The position numbers were made by a program, and so were the translations under genes. Positions 11,506 to 59,704 of a DNA stretch of 64,000 bases are shown in pieces. Within the stretch, counting starts at the first letter, position 1, and each line of letters starts with the position of its first letter. The notes under the pieces were generated by a model that did not search any database, was not told the origin of the DNA, and saw nothing but the letters and a program-made list of their open reading frames with translations. Location of the stretch: contig CAWHBL010000023.1 of the NCBI GenBank assembly GCA_963827555.1, forward strand, positions 29,568 to 93,567. Reading direction: 5' to 3'. Origin of the DNA: an uncultured beta proteobacterium. GTDB taxonomy: Bacteria > Pseudomonadota > Gammaproteobacteria > Burkholderiales > SG8-39.

Positions 11506-13256
11506 TCCCGCGACGCATCGGCGCGCGATCGACGAGGGCAGCCTGGTGGCTGCCCTTGTTTTTTGTCGCGTCGGTCGCGTTCGCACAACCCGCGCCCGAA
11601 GCGGCCACCGGCCGGACGCCGAAGGAGGCTGCGGTCGGCAGCCGCTTCATGGCCGTTGCGGCGCATCCGCTCGCGGTGGACGCCGGCTACGAGGTCCTGA
11701 GGCACGGCGGCAGCGCGGCCGACGCGGCGGTGGCGATGCAGCTCGTGCTCGGACTGGTGGAGCCCCAGTCCTCCGGCCTCGGCGGCGGCGGCTTCATCCT
11801 GCACTACTCGGCGGCCGACCGGCGGCGTGCGGGCGTACGACGGCCGCGAGACCGCGCCGGCGGCGGCGCGCCCGGAGCGGTTCATCGGGCTGTACGGCCG
11901 GCCGCTCGGATTCATGGAGGCGGTGCTGTCGGGCCGGGCGGTCGGCGTGCCCGGCACGATCGCGGTGCTCGAGGTCGCCCACCGCAATCACGGCCGGCTG
12001 CCGTGGCACGAGCTCGCGGCGCCCGCGATCGAGCTCGCCGAGCGCGGCTTCCCGGTCTCGCCGCGCCTGCACGCGCTGCTCGCGTTGGACCCGTTCCTCC
12101 GCCGCGATCCGTACGCCGCCCGCTACTTCTACGAGCCCGGCGGCAAGCCGAAAGCCGGTCGGGACGATCCTCCGCAACCCGGACTACGCGGCGGTGCTGC
12201 GCGAGGTGGCGGCAGGCGGGGCGATGGCCTTCTACAACGGCCAGACCGCGCGCGACGTCGTGGCGGCGGTGCAGAAGCACCCGGTCGAGCCGGGCAACCT
12301 CGACGCTCGCCGACTTCGAAGGCTATGCGACGCAGGAGCGCGCGCCGGTCTGCGGCGCCTTCCGCGCCTATCGCGTCTGCGGCATGCCGCCGCCGAGCGC
12401 GGGCGGCATCGCCGTGCTGCAGATCCTCGGCATCCTCGAGCGGCTGCCGCGAACCGACTATCCGCGCGACCCGGTGGCGGCGGTGCACTTCTTCGCCGAG
12501 GCGGGCCGGCTCGCGTACGCCGACCGCGACCGCTACGTCGCCGATCCCGACTTCGTCGACGTGCCCGTCGCCGGCCTGATCGCGCCGGACTACCTCGCCG
12601 CGCGGGCGGCGCTGATCGCGCCCGACCGCTCGCTGCGGCGCGCGCCGGCCGGCCATCCGCGCGGTGCGCCGACCGCCGCGTACGACGGCGCCGCGCTCGA
12701 GCTCGAGGCGACGACGCACTTCTCGGTCGTCGACGCCGAAGGCAACGCGGTGGCGTCGACGTCGAGCATCGAGGCCATGTTCGGCAACCGGCGGTTCGTG
12801 CGCGGCTTCCTGCTGAACAACCAGCTCACCGACTTCGCCTTCCTGCCGGAGGCGGACGGCGCCCCGGTCGCGAACCGGGTCGAAGGCGGAAAGCGGCCGC
12901 GCAGCTCGATGGCGCCGACGATGGTGTTCGACGCCGACGGCGGGCTCGTCCTCGTCACCGGCTCGCCCGGCGGGCAGGCGATCATCAACTACGTGGCGCG
13001 GGTGGTGGTGGCCGCGCTCGACTGGGAGATGGATCTGCAGGCGGCGCTCGACGCGCCGCACTTCGGCAGCCGCAACGGGCCGACCGAGGTCGAGGCCGGC
13101 ACGTCCGCGGCCCAGCTCCGGGCCGGCCTGGCGGCGCTCGGCCACGACGTGCGGGCACAGGAGATGACGAGCGGCGTGCACGCCATCCGGCGAGTCGGCG
13201 CGCAGTGGGTCGGCGCCGCCGATCCGCGCCGCGAGGGGATCGCGCGCGGCGAGTGA
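11502..13256 (+). CDS. ggt: Gamma-glutamyltransferase (frameshifts between about 11825 and 12305)
   Basis: [22 protein letters not shown] (alternate frame), [38 protein letters not shown]. Confidence 0.9.
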
Positions 13257-41827: not shown

Positions 41828-43123
<1,296 letters not shown>

Positions 43124-43139: not shown

Positions 43140-43229
43140 GGAGAGGTGGCAGAGTGGTCGAATGCGGCAGACTCGAAATCTGTTTTACGGCTTACCGTAA
43201 CGGGGGTTCGAATCCCTCCCTCTCCGCCA
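43140..43229 (+). tRNA. tRNA-Ser (anticodon CGA)
   Basis: GGAGAGG acceptor stem, gcaga-ctCGAaa-tctgt anticodon arm, long variable arm, GGTTCGAATCC, ends GCCA; 90 nt. Confidence 0.97.
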
Positions 43230-47720: not shown

Positions 47721-47952
47721 CTCCGCGGCGCTGGAGCGTGAGCATCGAGACGAGAACCCTTCGCCGCGAGCATCGGCTCGGGATCCCGGTGTCCCAAAGT
47801 GCAAGATGCTTGTCCTTTACGCCATCTCGCTGGCTCGCTAGTCTTCGCAGTGTGCCGACGACGAAGCTCGACGTCTCACACGCCCCGCTGAACATGGCGC
47901 TCGATGGCCCACGTTCACGAGCGCTTCGATCGCAACGGACGTAGGAGAAAGC

Positions 47953-48639
47953 ATGTCGAGCTCAAAGAGGGCCCTGCCAGACTCGGAGCTGTGTAACGCC
48001 GCCGTTGAGTACGCCCGGACCGTGTCCGACCCGTTCTTGTTTCATCACGTCATGCGGTCAGCCATCCTCGCCGACTCGATCGGTCGTAGGTCGGGCATGA
48101 AATTCGACCGCGAGGTCCTATGCGTGTCGGCAGTGCTCCACGACCTCGGTCTGACGACGATCGCCCCCGTACAGATGCGCTTCGAGATCGAAGGAGCGGA
48201 TCTCGCGAAGGACTTTCTCGCGAAGAAGGGGATGAGCGAAGGCCACCTCGAGATCGTCTGGGACGCCATCGCGCTGCATACGACTGCCGAGATCCCGTCG
48301 AGGAAATGCAGCGAGGTCGCCCTGTGTCAACTCGGCATCGCTGCTGATCTCGGGATCGCACCGCCGGACGTCATCAGCAACGAGACGGTCGACGACGTGC
48401 TCGCTGCGTACCCGTGGCTCGAAATGCACCAATCACTGCCTACGGCGCTCGTCGGCCTTTTCCACAAGAACCCCAAAGCCGCCTCCTCGAATCCCGTCGC
48501 AGAGGCGTGCGAGCAGCGGGTCCCAGGATTCAAGCGCTTCAACGTGTGCGATCGCTTGATCGACACGCATGCGCGAAGGAACGGGGGGACCCTGCGCACG
48601 AACAGCGAAGTCGAGATGCAACGGGGAGAAATCGCGTGA
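47953..48639 (+). CDS. HD-domain protein
   Basis: HHVMRS, LHDLGL, RFEIEGAD, WDAIALHT. Confidence 0.88.
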   Translation: MSSSKRALPDSELCNAAVEYARTVSDPFLFHHVMRSAILADSIGRRSGMKFDREVLCVSAVLHDLGLTTIAPVQMRFEIEGADLAKDFLAKKGMSEGHLEIVWDAIALHTTAEIPSRKCSEVALCQLGIAADLGIAPPDVISNETVDDVLAAYPWLEMHQSLPTALVGLFHKNPKAASSNPVAEACEQRVPGFKRFNVCDRLIDTHARRNGGTLRTNSEVEMQRGEIA

Positions 48640-49472
48640 GCGACGACCTCCCGAAGCTCGGACAAGTCAGCACGACGCGAGTCGACAACCTTCAGGTCCG
48701 AAGTGTGCGGGGCGGAGCAACGACCGGAATTCCGGTTCTCCTCACGAACCCTTGGCCGGAGAGCATCTACGCCTTTCGCGGGGTCCTGCCAACGATCGAG
48801 CGCCGCCATCCGGTGATCGCGGTTGATCTGCCGGGATTCGGCCGCTCTGAAGGCCGACCGGATGTGATGTCGCCAGAAGCCATGGGTCGTTTCATCGTGA
48901 AGTTGGCCGAGCACTTCGGGATGAACCGACTACACGCGGTCGGCCCGGATGTCGGCACCTCCGCGCTCTTGTTTGCGGCGGCGAAGAAGCCGACGCTCTT
49001 CGAGAGCCTAATCGTCGGCAGCGGCGCAGCGAGCCTGGAGCTCACGGCCGGCGCGCTGAAGGATATCGTCGCGTCACCCCCAGGCGCGTTCGCCCAGACG
49101 GATGGCGGCGGGATCGCCACGAGCTTCGTATCGGATTCGGCCGCTCGCCCGACGCCGGCAGCCATTCTTGAAGACTACAGGCTTTCCGCCGCCGGGAGCC
49201 GCTTCGAGGAGCAGGCGAACTACGTCAGAGCGTACGCGAACGACCTTCCGCGACTGAAGGAGCTCCTTCCCAACATCCAGACGCCGGTCTTGATCCTTGC
49301 GGGAAGAAGCGACCCGATCGTCCCGCCCGCGAACGGGCAGTTCCTGAAGGACCGCCTTCCCCGTAGTCGGTTCACGCTGCTCGAAGGGGGCCATCTCGTC
49401 TGGGAGGACGCCGCCGAGGATTATGCGGACGAGCTCGCGTCGTGGCTCGGCGGCGCCTATCGCTCCCTCTAG
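48636..49472 (+). CDS. Alpha/beta hydrolase (Asp-nucleophile, epoxide hydrolase-like)
   Basis: PWPES, DLPGFGRS, GPDVG, GGHLVWE; GTGA overlap. Confidence 0.88.
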   Translation: MSDDLPKLGQVSTTRVDNLQVRSVRGGATTGIPVLLTNPWPESIYAFRGVLPTIERRHPVIAVDLPGFGRSEGRPDVMSPEAMGRFIVKLAEHFGMNRLHAVGPDVGTSALLFAAAKKPTLFESLIVGSGAASLELTAGALKDIVASPPGAFAQTDGGGIATSFVSDSAARPTPAAILEDYRLSAAGSRFEEQANYVRAYANDLPRLKELLPNIQTPVLILAGRSDPIVPPANGQFLKDRLPRSRFTLLEGGHLVWEDAAEDYADELASWLGGAYRSL

Positions 49473-49512
49473 TGTTAACAGTGATCCATCCGCTCAGAGA
49501 AAGAGGAATTCC

Positions 49513-49884
49513 ATGACCAACAAACAGGTGGTTCTCGAAGCCATCACCGGGCTGTTCGTACGACGCGATGCGAGCGTTCTCGATACACATTTCGCCCCCG
49601 ACTATCGGCAGCACAATCCGACCATCGGGAATGGCGTGGCGGCGTTGCGCGCGCTTGCGCCCAAGCTGTCGCCGAACCTTCGCTACGAGCCTGGGATGAT
49701 CGTCGAGGACGGCGACATCGTCATGATCCACGGGCGCTATGTCGGCTGGGCCGAGAAGCCGCTCGTTGCCGTCGACATCTTTCGCGTGCGGGACGGAAAG
49801 CTCGTGGAGCACTGGGACGTGATGCAGGAAGAGGTGCCGGTGTCGGCGACGGTGAGCGGCAACCCGATGTTCACCATTCCGTGA
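49513..49884 (+). CDS. SnoaL/NTF2-like protein
   Basis: YRQHNP, VDIFRVRDGKLVEHWDVMQ; RBS gagga. Confidence 0.9.
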   Translation: MTNKQVVLEAITGLFVRRDASVLDTHFAPDYRQHNPTIGNGVAALRALAPKLSPNLRYEPGMIVEDGDIVMIHGRYVGWAEKPLVAVDIFRVRDGKLVEHWDVMQEEVPVSATVSGNPMFTIP

Positions 49885-49920
49885 ACGCGAGCAATCGAGA
49901 CCGAGGCGCACGATTCCACT

Positions 49921-50093
49921 CGCAAAACGCGCTCGATGCTGCTCCGCTACAACATCGTACCGAGCGCGAGACGGCAGATGCGCTGCTCCGCGCAGACGTC
50001 TATCTCTCAACGCAGCCGACGAGAGCCGAAAACGAAGGGACAGTTGAGGGACATTCAGGCCGACGGCGGCGGCAAGTCGTTGGCAGCCCGTGA
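49921..50093 (+). pseudogene. C-terminal remnant of a tyrosine integrase
   Basis: RKTRSMLLRYNIV/TERETADALLRAD resembles the GH-KT-x-S-M-x-x-RY-NIV catalytic-Tyr region; adjacent to a tRNA 3' fragment. Confidence 0.55.
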
Positions 50094-50099
50094 AGCGGT

Positions 50100-50129
50100 T
50101 GGCTCCCCACCGGAGTCGAACCGGTGTTC
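50100..50129 (-). other. tRNA 3'-end fragment (att-site remnant)
   Basis: Minus strand gaacACCGG-TTCGACT-CCGGTggggagCCA = T-arm, 3' acceptor strand and CCA; no 5' half. Confidence 0.65.
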
Positions 50130-50229
50130 GTGGTCGATGCAGACGGCAAGAACGCTATCCCGCGACGCCTACCACCGGTCGTGTCGTCGCTTTCAGAACG
50201 TCCTCGAATCCCGCCCGCTGCGGCCCTTG

Positions 50230-50800
50230 CCTCCCACTGCCTTGCACCAAGCAGTGCAGATGGATATTCAGGTTTGCGGCCGAGCCGAAGCGCTGGATCA
50301 GCGTAACCGCACCGCTGTCGGCGTGGCCTGCCTTCAATCCAGCTTGTTTGAGCAAGAAGCGGGTGATCACCCGATGGACAACCTGCAGCACCAGCGTGAG
50401 CACCTGGGGCTGCGCCGCCAGCAGCAAGCGCAGCGGGATCGGGAACGACAACACCCACTGGCGCATCGGCACGCGCGGGATGACGTGATCGATCAGGTGG
50501 GCGGCGGTCTGCGCCATGCGCCGGGCGCCGCACGAAGGGCAGAACCCGCGGCGCTTGCAGGAGAAGGCGACGAGCTTGTCGTGGCCGCAGTCGCCGCAAC
50601 GCAGTCGCAAGAAGCCATGGGCGAGGATGCCGCATTCCAGAAAGGCCTCGAACTCGTCCCTGACGAACGGTGGCAGGCTTGCACCCGCGGCGCCTTCGAG
50701 GTGGGCGAAGAAGGTCGCGGCGTTCTCCTGGACCAGCCGGTACAGCGTCGTTTGCTCCGGACGACGCAGATCGCAGTTCGAGGCTGGGCGTGGCGGTAGG
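50230..50800 (-). mobile_element. IS91-family transposase, N-terminal fragment
   Basis: RPEQTTLY, CGILAHGF, CGDCG, SCKRRGFCPSCGARRM, RQWVLSFP, QRFGSAANLNIHLHCLV (HUH); truncated right after the HUH motif. Confidence 0.9.
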
Positions 50801-51209
50801 GAGCGGTCTGAGCTAGTTGAGAGTTGGGGGGCACAGGACCGGGTGCAGCCGGTCGCGACGGTCAGATTTCGCAGGGCGACAGACAACGACTGCGTCCAGC
50901 CTGCCGCTCACTGCCCGATATAGGTGCGTTATTGGGACGCCAGCCACAGCGAAGTCACGCCGCCGCCGAGCGCTCGGCGGCGGCATTCAGAGCGGCCTCG
51001 GTGACCACTCGGGAAGCCTGGAAGCTGCCATTCGCCACCGGCGGCTCCTGGCCGGTTGCGTGAGTTCGCAACTAAGTCCGTAAGCTGCCCTTCGCGGCAA
51101 GAGCCTGATTCTTCCAAAACCCGCTTTCGGCGAACATAGGGAACCGCGGCTGTCGGCCACCTCCGGCCGTTCGCGGTCGCCGCAGGAATTTCCAGTGAGC
51201 GGCCGGCCG

Positions 51210-51405: not shown

Positions 51406-54400
51406 CTATCGTGCATCGGCATTGCCAAACCGGTCGACCGCTCGCGCCATGTCAACGGCACGAACAGTGCCAGCGGCCAGATCCACGGTCGCCGGCCCAT
51501 CGGCCGGCAAGCCAACTACCGAGAGGTAATCCTGCGACCGGCAGGTGATCACGATCACCTGAGTGTTCACCGCAATCCTCCGCAGCGCATCCTGAAACCA
51601 GTCCAGCCGGATCGCGTCGGTGTGAACGAGGTGATCGTCTAGGACCACGGTGCTCCGCATCTGGTCAGCAATCGACAGTCTCAACAGCACCGCAAGCTGA
51701 GCGCGGGTACCGACAGACAGGGCCTCCAGCACCTCGCTGCCCCCGGAGTTTGACGCCGTCGCGCTAAGACCCTCAGCACGCAGCGTAGCGTCGAGGCGTA
51801 GGCCGCTGTAGCGGCCCTGGGTCAGCTGTTCAAAGCGCTGCGTGACCGGGCCGGCGAGCGCACGGCCGAGATGCGTGCCTTCCTCGTTCTCGGTTTCGCG
51901 CAGCGTGTCGCGCAGGAGTTTCCACGCATCTGCATCGACTTCCAGCTCGCGCTCGCGCGCTTGCGCCGCGGCTCGGGCCTCTTCTAGTCGCTGTACTTCC
52001 TCGCGCAACGCGGCGCCGCCCACGTGCGCGAGCGACCCTTCCTTTACATTCAGGTCAGACTTGGCTTGCTCGTGGGCGGCGGCGGCGACTCTGACTCGGG
52101 CCTCGGCTTGCTCCACGTCGATGGTTGTCGTCGGCGTTTCCGCCGGCAGCGCTGCCAGTTCCAACTCCCGGGCCTCCACCGCTCGCACTGCGGTACCGCG
52201 GTCCAACTGCTCGATCCGGGCACGCATCTCATCCAGCGCGCCCTTCCGGCGGCTGCACTCGCCGCGCACTTCTTCGAGCGCCACGAGCGTGCCGTCCCGC
52301 GCAGCCTTCGCTTCGCCCAATACTCCCTGCGCAACCGTCACCGCCTGCTTCGCGCTTTCCACCTTGCTGCTCGCGGTTGTGGCCAGCTCCGCGAGCTGCG
52401 CCTGGTCTTTCGACTTCGCCTGCTCGATGCGCGTGATCTCCTGGCGCGTGCTGGCGAGTAGTTCGTCGACATCACCGCTCCCAAGCGAAGCGGCCTTCGC
52501 TTTCCATGCGGCGTTCAATTCGCTGGCGCTCTTCCGCCTTTCCGCGAGCTGGAACTCTGCCATCCTCACCGACTCGTCGCACGTAGCAAGTCCTTCGGAG
52601 AGCTTGCGGTGGGCTCTCGCAAGCTCCTCGTGCAGTTGCTCGACACGAGCTTCGGGTGGCTTGCCCAGGGTTCGGTAGTGCTCCTCTATCTGTTGCACGT
52701 CTTGTGCGCCGATTGCCGCCTTTCGCGCCTCGAGCTGCTCGGGTGTGAAGGGCGGGGCAGCGGTGCCCTGGTGGATGGTCGCCTGGTCGCGAAGGCTCTT
52801 CGCGTCAAGCCGGAGCCGCTCGGCGCTGCGCTTCAGTTCGCCGAGCGCCGCCTGCTCCGTGGTCAGCGCGGCGCGCAGATCGACGATGTCGCGGAGCGTC
52901 TTCACCTTGGCCTTGGTCAGAGCCGGTTGCGCGTCGTCCCGCCAGCGGCTACGCAGCTCATCGACGGCCTTACGCTGCTCGGCGCTGCCGGCCGTGATGT
53001 CGAGCTCGCCGACTTCGGCGATGACCAAACGCACTTGGCGCTGCGCGTCGAACGTTCGCTCCGCCGCAAGCTGGGTATCTTTCGGAGCCTCGTCGTCGAG
53101 TTGAACGCGCACGCCGAGCTTCCTGGTCGGCCGCACGGCGACACTAAGGCCGCCACCCAGCGCTGCCTCTGCTCTTTCCAACTCGCGCTCCAGCTCTTGG
53201 AGCGCCTGTAGCTGCTCCGCACCCGGCAGCTTTGCGGCGCGCTTCTCGAGCCCCGCCTCGGTGGTCTGTGCCTGCGCTTCGAGCTTCACAGCTTCGGCGT
53301 CCTTGCGCGTCGCCTCTTCCTCCGCGTGCCGCGCCGCGGCTGCCGCCTTGCCCGCCTCCTCGACGGCGGTCACGGCGGCGCGCCAGCGGATGTAGGCGAG
53401 GATGGCACGTGCGGTCTCCAGCTCGGTTGCGCGCTTGCCAACCGCGTCAGCCTCGCGGACCCTCGCCTCCTTGGCCGTCTCGAGCGCATCAGCCGAAGCA
53501 GCCACGGCCTTGTCCGCGGCCGACGCTTGCGTGCGAGCAGAGATGGCCGATTCGATCTCCGCCTTCCTCGCCGTAGCCACACCCAATGCCGCGCTCAGCT
53601 CGGCGATGCCTTTTTCAAGCTGCGCTTGCTGCAGCGCCCGCTCGCGCGCGGCGTCTTCGCTGCTCGCCGCCCGCAGAGCATCCTCCGCTGCTCTGACCTG
53701 GGATTCTGCTGCGGCAAATGCCAATGTCGCCGCGTCGGACGCGGCCTTCTGCCGGTCCAGCGCGCGCCTCGCACTCCTTCAGCTCGCCGGCGAGCGCCTG
53801 TGCGCGCCCAACCTCTGCATCGATGCGCCCCAACGCCTCCTTGTCGGCCGCGAGCCGTTCGGCGACCTTGCGTCGCGTCTCGCTGGCCGCGAAGCAGCGC
53901 TGTGTCGCCGCCAGCTGCGACTGTGCGTCGTTCAAGGCGGCGAGCGTATCGGCATGGCGCACGCGTAGCGCGCTCACCTCGCCCTCGATGGCCTGCGACG
54001 CCTGCATCTGCCGGTTGCGCTCACTCCAGCTCCGCGTTGAGCGCATTGACGCGGTCCCCGGCCTCCTTGAACGGCGACGACTGTCCGCGCCGGCGCTTGA
54101 CCGGTGTCCGTGAAGAAGGAGTCGACCTCGCGCTGGGCGCTGTCGAGCACGCGCTTGAACAGCGGATCCTGCGCCAGGGCCGCCAGCGCATGGGTCAGGC
54201 GCAGCTTGCCGGACTCGTCCGGATCCTCGGCGATGCTCGCCTCGAGGATGTCGTCCGCCTCGGCCTGCGCGCCGAGCAGCGCGGTTGCTAGAAAGCTGTC
54301 GGGCGCACCGCGCGGTGCGCCCTTGCCGCCCGGTGCCGGGATTCCCCAGGCGAGCATCGTCCGCAGTTTTTCTTCGACCTGCCGCCCCTTGCAGTCAGGC

Positions 54401-54724
54401 GTGAAGGTCTTGCCGTCCTTGGAATACAGCAGCTCCGCCGATGACGATGAAGAAGTCCCGAATGTCTTCTTAACCTTCCAGTAGCGCCCTTCATTGTCGG
54501 CGAAGGTCAGCTCGACGCGCGGATTCTCGGCCGTGAACCACGACGCATAGGTGTCCGCTTCGGACGAACTCGGCGGTGTCAGCAACGCCGCGCGGATCGC
54601 CATGGCAATGGTCGACTTGCCGAGGTCGTTCGGGCCATAGAGCACGTTCAGGCCCGGCGCCGAAGTCGATCGCCGCCTGCCGGACGGCCCGGAAGTTCTC
54701 GACCGAGATGCGGACCAGGCGCAC
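51406..54724 (-). CDS. Rad50/SbcC-like (YhaN-type) coiled-coil ABC ATPase, about 1100 aa, several frameshifts between 53700 and 54670
   Basis: MRLVRISVENFR, GLNVLYGPNDLGKST (Walker A), long coiled coil, LSVGT signature, VVLDDHLVHTD (Walker B/D-loop), QVIVITC. Confidence 0.88.
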
Positions 54725-55865
54725 TTACGACGCCTTCCGCTTCGCTGACCGGTAAAGGTGGAACAGCGCCCGCTCCGCGACGAGTCGCTGCGCCGGATCG
54801 TTCTCCGCGACACGCTTCAGGCGAGTGACGGCCGAGCGTAGGACGTCGGGCAGATCACCGCAATGCTGGTCTACCGTGGCGGTCTCGAGCTCGAGGCCAT
54901 TGCGGTCGAGCTCCAGAACGCCGGCGCGCGCGTGCCGGGCCGGCGTGCCCTGCAGCTCCTCGATCAGCACCTCGGCCTCGTCGTACTCCGGTGCCGGCAC
55001 TTTCATGTTGACATGCAGACGCAGCACCCGATCGGCCAGGTCGGTGCGACGCACGAGCGCACGCAACTCGTCGATGCTCGTGACGGTGCGCTCCTCCCAG
55101 GTCCAGCGCGCGACGCGCTCGGGGCGGACCGTCGCCACACGCTGCCGGTTGATGAACACGACGGCGACACAACCCGGATCCTTCTCGTCGAAGGCCGTCG
55201 CCTCCGGCGCGCCCGGATAGATCGTCGGCGGGTGCTGGCGGCCCGGCGGGATGTAGCGGAAGCCGTGCGTGTCGCCAATGGCCAGGTAATCGAGTCCGCG
55301 CTCGAGCACCGCGTCGGGATGCGATCGGGAAGTTCGTCTGCCAGTCCTTGGCGTCGAACGTGCTGCCGTGGACCATGCCGATGCGGATGCGCTCGTCGCC
55401 GGCGGCGCGCTTCGGGATGCATTCGGTCGGGTCGCGCTGGCCGGCTTTCGACATGCAGGGCACGGCGTAGAGCACGGCGCCGTTCGGGAAGCGTGTACTG
55501 GAAGTCTTCGCGATCGACGACGTGGACCCAGTCCGGCAGCAGACCCCGGAACTTGTGGCCCTTGGCCCAGATCGACTCAGTCGTCAGCGGGTCATGGTTG
55601 CCCGGCAGCAGGAACACCGGCCGCGTGCTGCGGGCATTTGCGCAGGCGGGCTGCGGTCTGTTCCCACCACTCGGCCGCCGGGTTCGGCTCGTCGAACAGG
55701 TCGCCAGCGCACAGCACCGCATCGACCGCGTAGCGATCGGCGGTCAGCAGGATCCGGTCGAGCACCTCCAGGCGCGCGCGCGAGAGCTTCAGCGCGCCGT
55801 CCTCCGGGAAGCTGCGGAAGCTGGCGACCGAGGTGCCAGTCCGCGGTGTGCACGAGCTTCAGCAT
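54725..55865 (-). CDS. Mre11/SbcD-like (YhaO-type) metallophosphoesterase nuclease, about 380 aa, frameshifted
   Basis: HTADWHLG, AGDLFD, LPGNHDP, MVHGS, DYLAIGDTH, YPGAPE across frames; its stop abuts the ATPase start. Confidence 0.88.
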
Positions 55866-55890
55866 GATGTCGTCCCCCGTCCTGCGGCGC

Positions 55891-58877
55891 TCATTCGATC
55901 ACCAGCATCCAGATCGAACAGGCGCTCGACGCGCGGCGGCGTGTAGCGGCGCCGGTGGATGTGCTCGCTGGTATTGCTGGAAGGTTGCGTCGTCACGGTT
56001 CTCGAGCCGGTGGATGGCACCGTCCACTTCGGCCAGGCTCGTCTTCCACGCTCAGCACGGCGCGCTCGGCCTCCGAGCGCGCTTCGGACCCGGCGGCGCC
56101 ATCGCGGCGCGCCCGGGCTTGCTCGAGCCGCTCTTCCAGTCCCTGCCGCCTGCGCCGAGGACCAGCAAGCGATCCTCGATGTAGCGCTCGGCCTGCTGCG
56201 ACGCGCGCTCGAAGCGCTTCTGCTCGTCCGCATCCACCGCGGCCTGGACCTCGAACATGACTTCCTGCTCGGCGTCGGCGAGCGCATCCTCGTCGACGTT
56301 CACGGTGCTGTCGGCGGCGAGCCATCGCGCATCGGTGCCTGCAAGCAGCTTCTGCGCGACTTGCGGCGGAATGGTCCGCGCCAGACTCACTGACGAAGAC
56401 AGGCACCAGCAGCTCCACCTTCTCGAAGCCATCGAAGGCGACCTTGACGAGGCGCAGGCACCCGCGCTGGCCGGCAAGAGCTGCCAGCTCTTCCGCTGCG
56501 CCATCAGGGAGGGTCACGACCGCGGACGCCCGTGCCGGCATGTCGCGGCGATGCAGCCACTGCGGCTTGAACGAGCGGATGGCCCAGGTGCAGCGGCTGG
56601 TGTTCCTTCGACGGGCCAACCGCCGCGATGGCGCCTTCCCGCAACCCCTCGGGAAGCAGCGGTGACGGCGCAACGTGAAGCAGTTCCTCCTCGCCGACCT
56701 GCTTGCGCTCGTAGAGCGATGCCCGCCGCGTCGAGGAAGCTGCGTGACGACGGCGTACAGGTCCCGATCGAGCTCCGCGAGTGCGCCGGGCACCCGTTCC
56801 TTGTGCTGCCGGAACACGCGCTGGATGCCCTCCTCGAAGCCGCTTCTCGATGAGGTCGTGCGTGCGGGCGTGTGCCTCCTCGAAGCGCTTGCGCTCTTCG
56901 GCAACCTTGTCGCGCAGAGCGCGCAACTCCGCCGTGACCTCGTCCAGCGTGCGTGCGCGCTCGTAGATGCGACGCAGCTCCGACTCGAACTCGCCGCCGA
57001 GGACGCTGACCAGGACCTCGCCTCGCGAGTCTGTCTCCGCGCGGTGCAGGACCTGGTCCGAGGCGTCGAGCACGGTGCCGAACAGCTCGAGCTTCTGGCT
57101 CAGGATCTCGAACGTCAGGCGCTGCGCCTCGTTGTCCTTGGCCAGGAAGTTGATGACCGTCACGTCGTGCTGCTGACCGTAGCGATGGCAGCGCCCGATG
57201 CGCTGCTCGATGCGCTGCGGATTCCAGGGCAGGTCGTAGTTCACGACGGTGTCGCAGAACTGGAGGTTCAGGCCCTTGGCGCCGGCCTCGGTGGAGATGA
57301 AGACGCGCGAGCGTGTCCGGAACTCGTGGACCAGCGCCAGCCGCGTCGCGATGTCGCGGATTGGCGTTCTGCCCGGCGTCGCGCGGCGACTTCCTCGTTC
57401 CAGCGCGCGAGCGCCTCCTGCGCGCGCTTGCGCCTCGTTGGTGCCGCGAGAACAGCGTGATCTCCGATTCGTCGGACGAGACGGCTTTCGATCAGGCGCT
57501 CGCGCAGATACGTCCTGCGTGACTCAGCGACTCCGTGAAGATGACCATCTTGCCGCTGCCGTCTGCGGCCGCTCGCGCGGCACAAGCGCAGCGCCTGCAG
57601 CAGCGCGCGGAACTTGCTGTCCTCGGCAGCCAGCTTTCGGCGCGCTCGATGTAGCCTTCGACGCGGGCCAGCTCGGCCTTGACTTGCGCGGGGCTCGGCG
57701 CTGCGCCCCGATCGTGCTCGGAAGCCGGATCGTCGGAACCGGCATCGTCCTCTTCGAGATCGGCGAGCAGCGGTTCCGTCGTCCTCGTCCTTCGCGCCGG
57801 CCTCCGGCGTGCGCTCGAGCATGCGCCGCAGCCGCTTTGCCACCCCTTGCAGGCTCGCCGCGAGCGCAGCGTTCGACGATGCCATGCGGCGGTGAAAGCC
57901 GAGGAGCAGCAACTGCCGATGGCCGCCCTTCGAACGCGAGGATGCCGGGCTCCGAGCAGATACTGGCGTGACGTCGTCGTAGAGCGCCTCTCCGTCCGGC
58001 GCTCATCGCGTACTCGAAGAGCCGCGCCTGCGCGGCCCACGAACGGCTTTTCGAGGAACTCCTGCGCCTGCGCGGCGCAGCGTTCGCTGCAGGACGCTGC
58101 GCAGGCGGCTGCGCAACTCGTCCTCCTGCCCCTGCGCGAGCTGGCGATCGTCCACGCCGCAGAACACCTCGCGGAAGGTCGCCAGGTCGCCGAGCAGCGT
58201 GCCCAGCGGGTCGACGTACTGCACCAGGCCCCACAGCTCCGCGAGGCTAGTTCTGGATAGGCGTTGCCGTCAGCAGCAGCACGGGCGTGCGGCGTGCGGC
58301 GAGCACCTCGCGCACGCGCCCAGCGGTCTGCGCCGTCGTTGCGTCCTCCTTGTATTGCCCGAACCGGTCAAAGCGCTTGTGGATGCCCGCGAATACTTCG
58401 TGCGCCTCGTCGATGACGCACGAGGTCGAACTCGTCCGACAGCAGCAGAGCATCGCGCCCACGCGCGCTGCCCGCGGCTTCGCGACCAATCAGGAACACC
58501 CCATCGCCGTCGAAGCCGCCGATGCCCGCCCGCGCCTCGACAGCATCGATGTCGAAGAGCTGGTAGAGCTCCTGACGCCACTGCCCGAGCAAGGGCTTGG
58601 GCGTGATCAGCAGGACGCGGCGCGCCCCCTCGGCCATGAGCTGGGCGATGACGAGGCCAGCCTCGATGGTCTTGCCGAGCCCGACTTCGTCCGCGAGGAT
58701 GCAGCCGCCCTCGCGCAGCCGGGCCAGGGCGAAGATGACCGCATCGATCTGGTGGGGATTCGCATCGACCTTGGCGGCGCGCTGAGGTGCAGCGAAACGG
58801 CGCTGCTCGTCGGAACGGCGCAGTCGCACGAGATCCTCGGCAAGATAGCGAACCTGAGAAGGATGGCGCATGGTCAT
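55891..58877 (-). CDS. SNF2-family helicase, about 990 aa, many frameshifts
   Basis: NPHQIDA, ILADEVGLGKTIEAG, IDEAH, LLLTATP, STEAGAKGLNLQ, NYDLPWNPQRIEQRIGRCHRYGQ; C-terminal coiled coil. Confidence 0.9.
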
Positions 58878-58888
58878 CCGGCGCGTTA

Positions 58889-59420
58889 AGGATAGCGATT
58901 TCAATCGCGCGAGCCTGAGTGTGGTGGGGTCGGTGGTGCGGGTCAAGCGTTGACTTTCGGCGGTAATGGGCTGCTCCGCGCGCTTGTCGTCGTACTTGCG
59001 CGCGGGCGCCGACGCCAAGGTGGCCGCGCGCGGTCAGGCTGGCGGGCACAGGCGCGAGCAAGTCCGGCGGTGCGCACAGGCGAGCGCCGACGGTAGTGGC
59101 TACCAGGCGAGGCGCTGGTCGAACTCGTAGGCCGGGATGGGCGAGAACGCCGGATCGGCGGTCGGCTCGTGCTCGGCGCCGGCGGCCTTCCACAGTGGCG
59201 GGCCGCGGGCGGGCGCGATCCGGGGTGGTGCTGTCGGCTCGCCGAGGTGGGCGAGGATGTCGCGGACGTTGGGCGGCGTCGGTGATGAAGGCGATGACGC
59301 GCATCTCGCGCGCCGCAGAGCGGGCACACGAGGGGAAAGACTTCATAGATGCAGGCGAGCAGCGCCGCCCAGGCGTAGCGGGAAGCACGGCGATGGGCCG
59401 GTTCGGTGGCGGGCTGCGGA
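58889..59420 (-). mobile_element. IS91/ISCR-like element 3' end: transposase C-terminal remnant plus oriIS-like terminus
   Basis: CPLCG-EMRVIAFITD-VRDILAHLGEPTAPPRIAPARGPPLW...YEFDQRLAW* (stop at 59100); terminus GCGATTGAAATCGCTATCC. Confidence 0.78.
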
Positions 59421-59704
59421 TTGGCTGCGGGCGGTGGGGTCGTCGCGGCGGCTAGGGCGATGGCATGACAGCGGTGCGCAGCGGTGAGTTGGGCGCGAGC
59501 ACGCCGAAGTAACGGTGGCGCGAACGTCAGCTTCCCTCAAATTGACAGTCAGCTTTCAGGAACATCGACGGGCGGCTCAGGGTCGACTTGAGCCCTTCGG
59601 CTGACGGTCGCCGACCGGCCAGAAGCGGCGGTACGGCGACGTCGCTGAGAGCGGTCTTTCGACGGCGCTATCGACTCGAAGCGGACGTTCGTGTCGATGT
59701 GAGC

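Follow-up and report, generated by a model that had tools for sequence, protein, structure and literature searches.

A conserved SNF2, Mre11-like and Rad50-like gene cassette as a candidate motor-coupled DNA end-processing module

In a 64,000-nucleotide (nt) stretch of a metagenome-assembled genome (MAG) of an uncultured beta proteobacterium (GCA_963827555.1, contig CAWHBL010000023.1; hereafter the window, in which all positions are counted), three co-directional genes on the minus strand fill positions 51406-58877. In the order of transcription they encode a SNF2-family ATPase, an Mre11/SbcD-like nuclease and a Rad50/SbcC-like ATPase of the structural maintenance of chromosomes (SMC) type. 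We show here that this trio is a conserved, apparently mobile three-gene unit in which the catalytic residues of all three enzymes are under selection, and that it recurs intact in many soil and water bacteria. Taken as a whole, the explanation that the trio is a mobile, motor-coupled end-processing nuclease, probably defensive, has in our judgement an even chance of being right. Gene coordinates were obtained by frameshift-aware dynamic programming alignment of intact homologues to the window DNA; a plain listing of open reading frames (ORFs) gives fragments only. Lengths in amino acids (aa) are those of the genes read through their breaks.

58877-55891, minus strand: SNF2-family ATPase, RapA-like; ATG at 58877, last codon ending at 55894, stop 55893-55891; about 995 aa read through
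55865-54725, minus strand: Mre11/SbcD-like calcineurin-fold nuclease; ATG at 55865, stop 54727-54725; about 379 aa
54724-51406, minus strand: Rad50/SbcC/YhaN-like SMC-type ATPase; GTG at 54724, stop 51408-51406; about 1104 aa

The SNF2 and nuclease genes are separated by 25 nt, and the nuclease and ATPase genes by 0 nt. An earlier reading of the letters alone (the original prediction) had given the same positions, shared direction and gaps, all of which were reproduced by the alignment, and each motif that it listed was found in the window: ADEVGLGKT, VIDEAH, TATP and QRIGRCHRYGQ in the SNF2 protein, DWH, GDLFD, GNHD, HGS and GDTH in the nuclease, and Walker A GPNDLGKST, signature LSVGT and Walker B VLDD in the ATPase. 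It had also held that the genes need frameshift correction, and indeed none of the three is a single open frame in the window. Fragments of the window SNF2 protein match Pfam SNF2-rel_dom and Helicase_C, and the N-terminus of the window ATPase matches AAA_23 and AAA_27. In an intact homologous locus, an Acidobacteria copy referred to as L004, the nuclease matches Metallophos and the ATPase matches SMC_N, AAA_23 and AAA_27. The window SNF2 protein is identical to the intact 995-aa L004 protein at 733 of 989 aligned residues (74%) and the window nuclease to its L004 counterpart at 313 of 377 (83%), while the window ATPase is identical to another homologue, P0002, at 992 of 1104 (90%).

The trio is far from confined to this MAG. 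A word-indexed search with the long ORF of the window ATPase returned 52 relatives, most of them about 1100 aa long and intact, and an ATPase profile search of 1.84 billion cluster representatives (a 50%-identity library) returned 1091 proteins at E <= 1e-30; full-length matches predominate among the best 150. A further ATPase scan, limited to one genome per species, gave 176 relatives, from which 76 loci were kept, 65 of them with 4300 nt or more of sequence before the ATPase start. At 58 of these 65 testable loci the SNF2, nuclease and ATPase genes stood in the same order. Clustering of all flanking ORFs gave no fourth conserved gene, the best non-trio cluster being present in 7 loci; three-gene synteny in distant taxa, which the original prediction had named as the thing to look for, was thereby borne out. 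The SNF2 gene was a single full-length match without stops at 52 loci, and identities to L004 co-vary across loci (48-88% for SNF2, 43-85% for the nuclease). Conservation extends to the active sites: across 52 sequences, K74, D161, E162, A163, H164, R563 and R566 of the SNF2 protein (L004 numbering) are invariant, as are the metal ligands D9, H11, D55, N90, H91, H166, D198 and H200 of the nuclease. In the ATPase, the catalytic residues K37, Q154, S1004, G1006, D1030 and D1031 are invariant.

By their record titles, the hosts of the 58 trio loci comprise 39 Myxococcota or 'delta proteobacteria', 16 Acidobacteriota, one Caldimonas, one member of the Binataceae (Binatota) and one of the Rokubacteria. 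Among them is a cultured carrier, Paraliomyxa miuraensis SMH-27-4 (locus L043). The ATPase query matched neither the 8 other genomes of the MAG's genus nor 24 genomes of its family, and gave a weak partial match in one genome of the same order. The seryl-tRNA synthetase (SerRS) encoded beside the island that holds the trio is 80-83% identical to Burkholderiales-named proteins, and by this marker the MAG probably belongs to that order; the MAG's trio is closest to Acidobacteriota copies. In a tree of 52 SNF2 proteins (FastTree, without bootstrap, with MAG labels) two large clades mostly follow phylum. The exceptions are Caldimonas and four Acidobacteriota, which fall within the Myxococcota clade, and Binatota and Rokubacteria, which fall within the Acidobacteriota clade; the tree needs 6 label changes against a minimum of 4. 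The topology suggests transfers of the SNF2 gene between lineages.

Two observations at other loci are recorded here. In L008:13608-18158 (Caldimonas) and L009:11490-17471 (a Polyangiaceae MAG), a giant protein of 1500-2000 aa is encoded directly downstream of the trio and combines a superfamily 1 helicase (AAA_11/AAA_12) with REase_MTES_1575, to which the L009 protein adds DUF4011 and DUF3320. A separate branch of the ATPase, 34-37% identical, comes without upstream nuclease or SNF2 genes (L027, L029, L030 and L046, in Myxococcaceae and Myxococcota MAGs) and has peptidase M20, Ig-domain giants and a sigma factor as neighbours; the upstream DNA of L046 is short, which makes its assignment uncertain.

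The SNF2 protein is built of a short conserved N-terminus, a helicase core preceded by only about 40 residues, and a C-terminal domain that may be RapA_C-like. An AlphaFold2 model of the L004 protein (52 sequences) had a mean predicted local distance difference test score (pLDDT) of 75.9, with values of 85-92 in the C-terminal 300 residues. When this model was searched with Foldseek, the best match was RapA (E 1.5e-24 over about 1090 columns), and chromatin remodellers followed at 1e-16. The top fold match is an N-terminally truncated RapA (8so8), and the template modelling (TM) score to RapA was 0.39-0.49 over full length. Language-model features placed the C-terminal domain near RapA_C clusters at 0.96, with recognition below the tool's mark, which makes this a lead only. 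Because the fold match is best to truncated RapA, and because of this C-terminal lead, the helicase is, as modelled, a RapA-like motor without the RapA N-terminal domain. RapA (HepA) is an RNA-polymerase-recycling Swi2/Snf2 ATPase whose N-terminal domain binds RNA polymerase. The trio protein has its best whole-length fold match to RapA and may resemble it in the C-terminal domain, but it lacks that N-terminal domain, scores 135.9 bits against the NCBIfam RapA equivalog (PRK04914) where the cut-off is 576, and is predicted to contact the nuclease rather than RNA polymerase through its C-terminal domain.

At the level of sequence, the best profile for the helicase core is DrmD of DISARM. The core scores 419.5 bits against NF038318 (DrmD_b; cut-off 950) over profile positions 25-617 of 868, 222.7 bits against NF038317 (cut-off 610) and 414.5 bits against PADLOC PDLC02619, and BrxH of BREX, HmaA of Hma, DpdE of Dpd and ZorD of Zorya rank next. 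In class 1 DISARM systems, DrmD occurs with DrmA (a DUF1998 helicase), DrmB, DrmC (a phospholipase D protein) and a methylase, whereas no DrmA, DrmB, DrmC or methylase is conserved beside the trio. Such partners were missing, one N6_N4 methylase apart, from the top 25 Pfam families listed for the 191 nearest flanking ORFs (150 + 41) of 62 loci, and from the 10 island ORFs scanned in the window. An assignment of the SNF2 protein as a DrmD equivalog was ruled out by the score far below the cut-off together with the lack of DISARM partners. The original prediction had likened the helicase to a companion of type III restriction-modification genes, and this likeness did not hold up: the fold is RapA-like and the core sequence is nearest DISARM DrmD.

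The other two proteins resemble the SbcCD/Mre11-Rad50 complexes (E. coli SbcCD, and the T. maritima and P. furiosus Mre11-Rad50 proteins) in that a calcineurin-fold nuclease and an SMC-type ATPase with a long coiled coil are encoded by adjacent or overlapping genes. All Mre11 phosphoesterase motifs are present in the trio nuclease, and its best solved relatives are T. maritima Mre11/SbcD. Both proteins nevertheless fall below the cut-offs of the SbcD and Rad50/SbcC families. An intact nuclease homologue scored 51.7 bits against Metallophos and 65.9 bits against TIGR00619 (sbcd), just below the cut-off of 77.65, and the score against NF008206 was 47 bits, with a cut-off of 450. The ATPase matched Rad50, RecF and SMC models only around Walker A, scored 21-22 bits against Rad50 family models with cut-offs of 700-1087, and reached 21.9-22.7 bits against AAA_27 (PF13514), at the cut-off of 22; its best sequence match in the PDB is P. 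furiosus Rad50.

The AlphaFold2 model of the L004 ATPase (pLDDT 81.5) has a split head (residues 1-205 and 973-1101) and a long antiparallel coiled coil, and its Foldseek matches were Smc5/6, MukB, JetC and Rad50. The apex of the Rad50 coiled coil carries a zinc hook (CxxC). At that position the trio ATPase has a six-strand beta domain (residues 526-577) and no conserved cysteine pair, as no invariant or near-invariant cysteine was found mid-protein. It differs from Rad50 also in its Walker B motif, which is DD rather than DE, and has Thr-Cys at what we take to be the position of the Rad50 H-loop histidine. Unlike SbcCD, moreover, the trio has a dedicated upstream SNF2 gene. One ATPase relative is named 'YhaN' in a Joint Genome Institute (JGI) record, and AAA_27 is the Pfam family of YhaN. 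The nearest studied analogue of the trio ATPase may be B. subtilis SbcE (YhaN), which passages of PMC2811018 describe as an SbcC-like SMC ATPase whose central domain is unique and whose partner is a phosphoesterase. Set beside the trio by description only, the SbcE/SbcF (YhaN/YhaO) pair also joins an SMC-like ATPase to a phosphoesterase and may be comparable in its central domain, but those passages describe no SNF2 partner.

Prediction of the complex, a check that the original prediction had proposed, placed the C-terminal domain of the SNF2 protein on the nuclease. The job comprised four chains, namely the SNF2 C-terminal domain (residues 727-995), the nuclease and the two halves of the ATPase head, and gave scores of 0.71, 0.72 and 0.69 for the SNF2 domain, against 0.00 for the best of three controls. 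The mark used for such scores is reached by 58 of 80 solved complexes and by 2 of 110 mismatched pairs. The runs agreed in at least 58% of contacts, and the partner pLDDT was at least 77. All confident contacts lay on the nuclease, at residues 1, 3, 22-46, 235-253, 277-278 and 308-311; on the SNF2 side they were made by the first helix of a long hairpin (865-913) and by a C-terminal patch (975-981) that includes R978 and Y979, both near-invariant in the family. As we know of no solved RapA_C-Mre11 complex, this pass is unlikely to come from predictor memory. Docking of the SNF2 motor on the nuclease by way of the motor's C-terminal domain is supported by the model.

The SNF2 protein has one further conserved surface. 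Its N-terminal extension (residues 10-48 in L004; about 58750-58850 in the window, minus strand) carries E19, R23, R25, R32, R38 and D43 to Q48, all invariant in 52 sequences, and is modelled with a confident helix at residues 11-22. It could be a second docking site.

The trio lies in a stretch at 44-62 kb with a guanine plus cytosine (G+C) content of 0.62-0.69, compared with 0.70-0.75 in most of the core, and the following features surround it.

41840-43123: serS, by SerRS homologues
43140-43229, plus strand: tRNA-Ser (CGA), by ARAGORN, after serS; possible left edge of the lower-G+C island
47842-48636, plus strand: HD-domain protein (PF01966, 32.6 bits), in a fragmented stretch between a LysR regulator and the IS91 copy
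49372-50907, minus strand: IS91-family transposase piece directly downstream of the trio, with its N-terminus at 50158-50907 (Pfam Zn_Tnp_IS91, 72.3 bits, and the start of Y2_Tnp)
about 58943-59536, minus strand: immediately upstream of the trio, what reads by eye as the C-terminal end of an IS91-like transposase, fragmented over three frames; no Pfam hit

The original prediction had described a tRNA-linked island bracketed by IS91 fragments. The tRNA-Ser gene, the lower G+C content and the downstream IS91 piece, recognised by Pfam, agree with this description; the upstream bracket drew no Pfam hit, and its C-terminal motif is one that we presume to be IS91-like.

The alignment resolved the broken frames of the trio into 37 small indels, all within 53761-58421 (4.7 kb), and 34 of the 37 are single inserted bases. 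The SNF2 gene has 26 one-base insertions and three two-base skips, the nuclease gene has four one-base insertions, and the ATPase gene has four (at 54661, 54096, 54026 and 53761), with no indels in its last 2.35 kb (51409-53760). Such dense packing next to an unbroken stretch, in a locus between IS91 pieces and in a family where another locus (L005) shows an apparent internal deletion, could point to a dead, decaying pseudogene cluster whose indels are real mutations of the lineage. We consider this improbable, since the events are so uniformly single inserted bases, none of the trio's in-frame stops is due to substitution, and identity to intact homologues between the breaks is 74-90%. The same one-directional bias is found throughout the MAG. 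A codon-usage Viterbi scan of all 39 contigs, which counted same-strand frame switches without a nearby stop codon, detected 794 of them, 726 of the +1 kind (inserted base) against 68 of the other kind; the switches were present on all 39 contigs, at 0.4-8.5 detected per 10 kb. These counts are lower bounds because the scan is insensitive, recovering 8 same-strand frame switches across the trio where alignment gave 37 events. Nor are the shifts limited to the island: in the core part of the window a GGT-like housekeeping gene has +1 insertions at 11826, 12151 and 12308 relative to a same-genus homologue, while the adjoining pyrophosphatase gene has none.

Sequences from elsewhere bear on the question directly. 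The extra letters are missing from Logan contigs of four other studies that share about 96% identity with the window. For 16 of the 23 listed Logan pieces within the mapped interval, the gap count equals the number of insertions predicted inside the piece, and the other 7 differ by 1-5 gaps, mostly at the two-base skips. A 906-nt contig, for instance, covers 915 nt of the window (57717-58631) in which 9 insertions are predicted, a second 906-nt contig covers 912 nt (56313-57224) with 6 predicted, and a 388-nt piece on 54747-55134 has 0 gaps where 0 are predicted. Protein P0001, which matches at 97% identity across the 790 residues of the query, has an open frame through three of the window's insertion sites. 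A comparison with sequencing runs gave no source for the DNA, the best run holding 0.24 of the words. The strongly one-directional and genome-wide character of the shifts could also be read as a sign that they are decoded throughout the organism, by programmed frameshifting or four-base codons. This is barely credible, for the 34 well-placed sites also lie outside homopolymers and have no motif, codon or subsequent stop in common, the density of frame switches is very uneven and clustered (0 to 14 detected per 10 kb), and near-identical genes elsewhere do without the extra letters; to our knowledge, no bacterium decodes +1 shifts genome-wide. A property of the locus was thus rejected as the source of the broken frames, given the genome-wide insertion bias and the relatives without extra letters. 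The 37 indels are most likely assembly noise, part of the MAG-wide insertion pattern, and the window copy is most likely intact in the organism.

Because one-base insertion errors occur on every contig, broken genes in this MAG should not be called pseudogenes, and the window serves as a warning of how easily they can be misread as such. The MAG's completeness, 66% by marker genes, may be lowered by broken genes and so be an underestimate. The upstream IS91-like piece is split over three frames, and the insertion noise therefore extends to at least about 59350. Two other ways of locating breaks were abandoned. A plot of third-position G+C by frame across the trio stepped through frames 1, 2 and 0 but was swamped by noise where the coiled coil is rich in Ala and Glu, and protein-guided alignment was used instead; a longest-ORF scan of the genome lacked sensitivity, since at 70% G+C long ORFs often arise spuriously. 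In L005:2787-5966 (a Thermoanaerobaculia MAG) the SNF2 match runs to residue 794 and is directly followed by a nuclease match that begins at residue 111, which looks like a deletion of about 1.1 kb fusing the two genes. Proteins P0003, P0004 and P0005 are 81-82% identical to the window ATPase and only 808-881 aa long, compared with about 1100 in the family; there may be breaks in the 5' third of the gene in their assemblies, or late start calls.

No single system in PADLOC-DB v2.0.0 matches all three proteins. The helicase matches the helicases of several systems, the nuclease matched 0 families, and the ATPase gave weak matches of its N-terminal Walker A region only, including LmuB (PDLC03859, 46.9 bits). 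With LmuB of Lamassu and JetC of Wadjet, the latter among its fold hits, the trio ATPase shares the SMC-type architecture of proteins thought to sense DNA ends or topology. Lamassu combines LmuB with an LmuA effector and LmuC, but the trio has no LmuA/LmuC or JetABD partners, and its effector is an Mre11-type nuclease with a motor. The trio was not revealed by NCBIfam models either, and a literature search found no description of it; the supplementary candidate lists of defence surveys may include it. In the passages concerned, SNF2, SbcC and Mre11 in PMC7824862, and SNF2 and 'three-gene' in PMC10853773, both papers of the Aravind group, refer to other systems. The original prediction had expected PADLOC to return no full system and had known of no named system with this trio, and on both points our searches of PADLOC-DB and the literature agree. 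What looks new is that an Mre11-Rad50-type nuclease has a SNF2 motor dedicated to it, docked according to the model, and an ATPase without the hook.

How the trio might work can be outlined from homology and modelling. The three gene products would form one machine, in which an Mre11/SbcD-type nuclease acts with a Rad50/SbcC-type ATPase and a RapA-like SNF2 translocase on double-strand DNA is docked on the nuclease by its C-terminal domain, the whole cassette moving between lineages as a self-contained unit. The Rad50-like clamp would recognise free, hairpin-capped or protein-blocked DNA ends, and the motor would drive DNA into the nuclease or strip away proteins bound to it. Linear foreign DNA of phages or plasmids would then be degraded processively and the circular, end-less chromosome spared, so that the trio would act as an end-triggered defence module needing no methylase. 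In its most specific form, this proposal is of an undescribed anti-phage and anti-plasmid system whose SNF2 motor makes a distributive Mre11/Rad50 enzyme processive on capped or free ends and whose self-recognition is by topology and not by methylation; we hold that form tentatively, at somewhat less than an even chance.

Defence is preferred here on four grounds: the family is sporadic in distribution, its flanks vary, the window copy lies in an IS91 and tRNA setting, and some loci have defence-type neighbours. Among the top families listed in the flank tally are AAA_21/AAA_15 (4), UvrD/GajB (3), AbiEi (3), BrxL (2) and one each of BrxC/D, DUF3323, N6_N4 methylase, Mrr and BrnT, and the giant proteins with a superfamily 1 helicase and REase_MTES_1575 adjoin the trio at two further loci; a corresponding PADLOC tally was set aside, its top rows being filled by redundant GajB, AbiEi and AbiLi models. 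Several results weigh against this preference. Defence-type genes make up about 17 of the 191 flanking ORFs (about 9%), a raw tally without background control, and most flanking genes are ordinary (oxidoreductases, transporters, polyketide synthases). No member of the family turned up in IMG/VR viral contigs, where none of 34 pattern matches was a relative, or by tblastn in PLSDB plasmids, and the usual vehicles of defence genes do not obviously carry it. The SNF2 tree runs mostly by phylum, and much of the spread may therefore be vertical. Four of the 65 testable loci have the nuclease and ATPase only (L044, L052, L074 and L075) and three the ATPase alone (L027, L029 and L030); the neighbours at these seven were unrelated genes, with no substitute helicase seen. 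No component is visibly dedicated to discriminating self from foreign DNA. The four-chain complex job, run with its own alignments, differs from the setting in which the complex tool was calibrated. Finally, B. subtilis SbcE/SbcF, the nearest studied pair of an SMC-like protein and a phosphoesterase, is a repair system as described in passages of PMC2811018.

The main rival starts from this last point. The trio could be an accessory module for repair of double-strand breaks or replication forks. Ends would be processed by the Mre11/Rad50-like complex once the SNF2 motor had remodelled nucleoprotein or reversed the fork, and the module would be a counterpart of SbcE/SbcF or a bacterial version of the remodeller-assisted resection that MRX carries out in eukaryotes. 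Among profiles and solved structures alike, SbcD/Mre11 and Rad50 are the closest matches of the nuclease and ATPase, the beta-domain apex is comparable to the unique central domain of SbcE, and the ATPase relative named 'YhaN' shares its name with that protein, whose repair role is given in the same passages (PMC2811018). Housekeeping genes as the majority of neighbours, the absence from the IMG/VR and PLSDB searches, and hosts that are large-genome Myxococcota and Acidobacteriota, which keep many paralogues, all speak for such a module, and the repair reading fits the homology and the lack of a conserved methylase or other self-marking gene equally well. It accords less easily with a family that is sporadic in distribution and missing, with the ATPase query, from the MAG's genus and family, with its variable flanks, or with a window copy that sits between IS91 pieces in a tRNA-linked stretch of lower G+C content. 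Gabija, AbiE, BREX, Wadjet-type and restriction genes, moreover, adjoin a minority of loci, and the helicase core is nearest defence helicases. On balance a repair role appears less likely than defence, which remains our preferred reading.

If the trio is defensive, it would be a system built on the oldest DNA-end sensor, Mre11-Rad50, together with a motor of the chromatin-remodeller type, a pairing otherwise known from eukaryotic end resection, and it would offer a testable model for bacteria that read 'having ends' as the signal of foreign DNA. If it is a repair module, it would be a bacterial example of remodeller-assisted end processing. Either way, a family of 1091 representatives, a predicted SNF2-nuclease interface that can be mutated and a cultured carrier, Paraliomyxa miuraensis SMH-27-4, are in hand.

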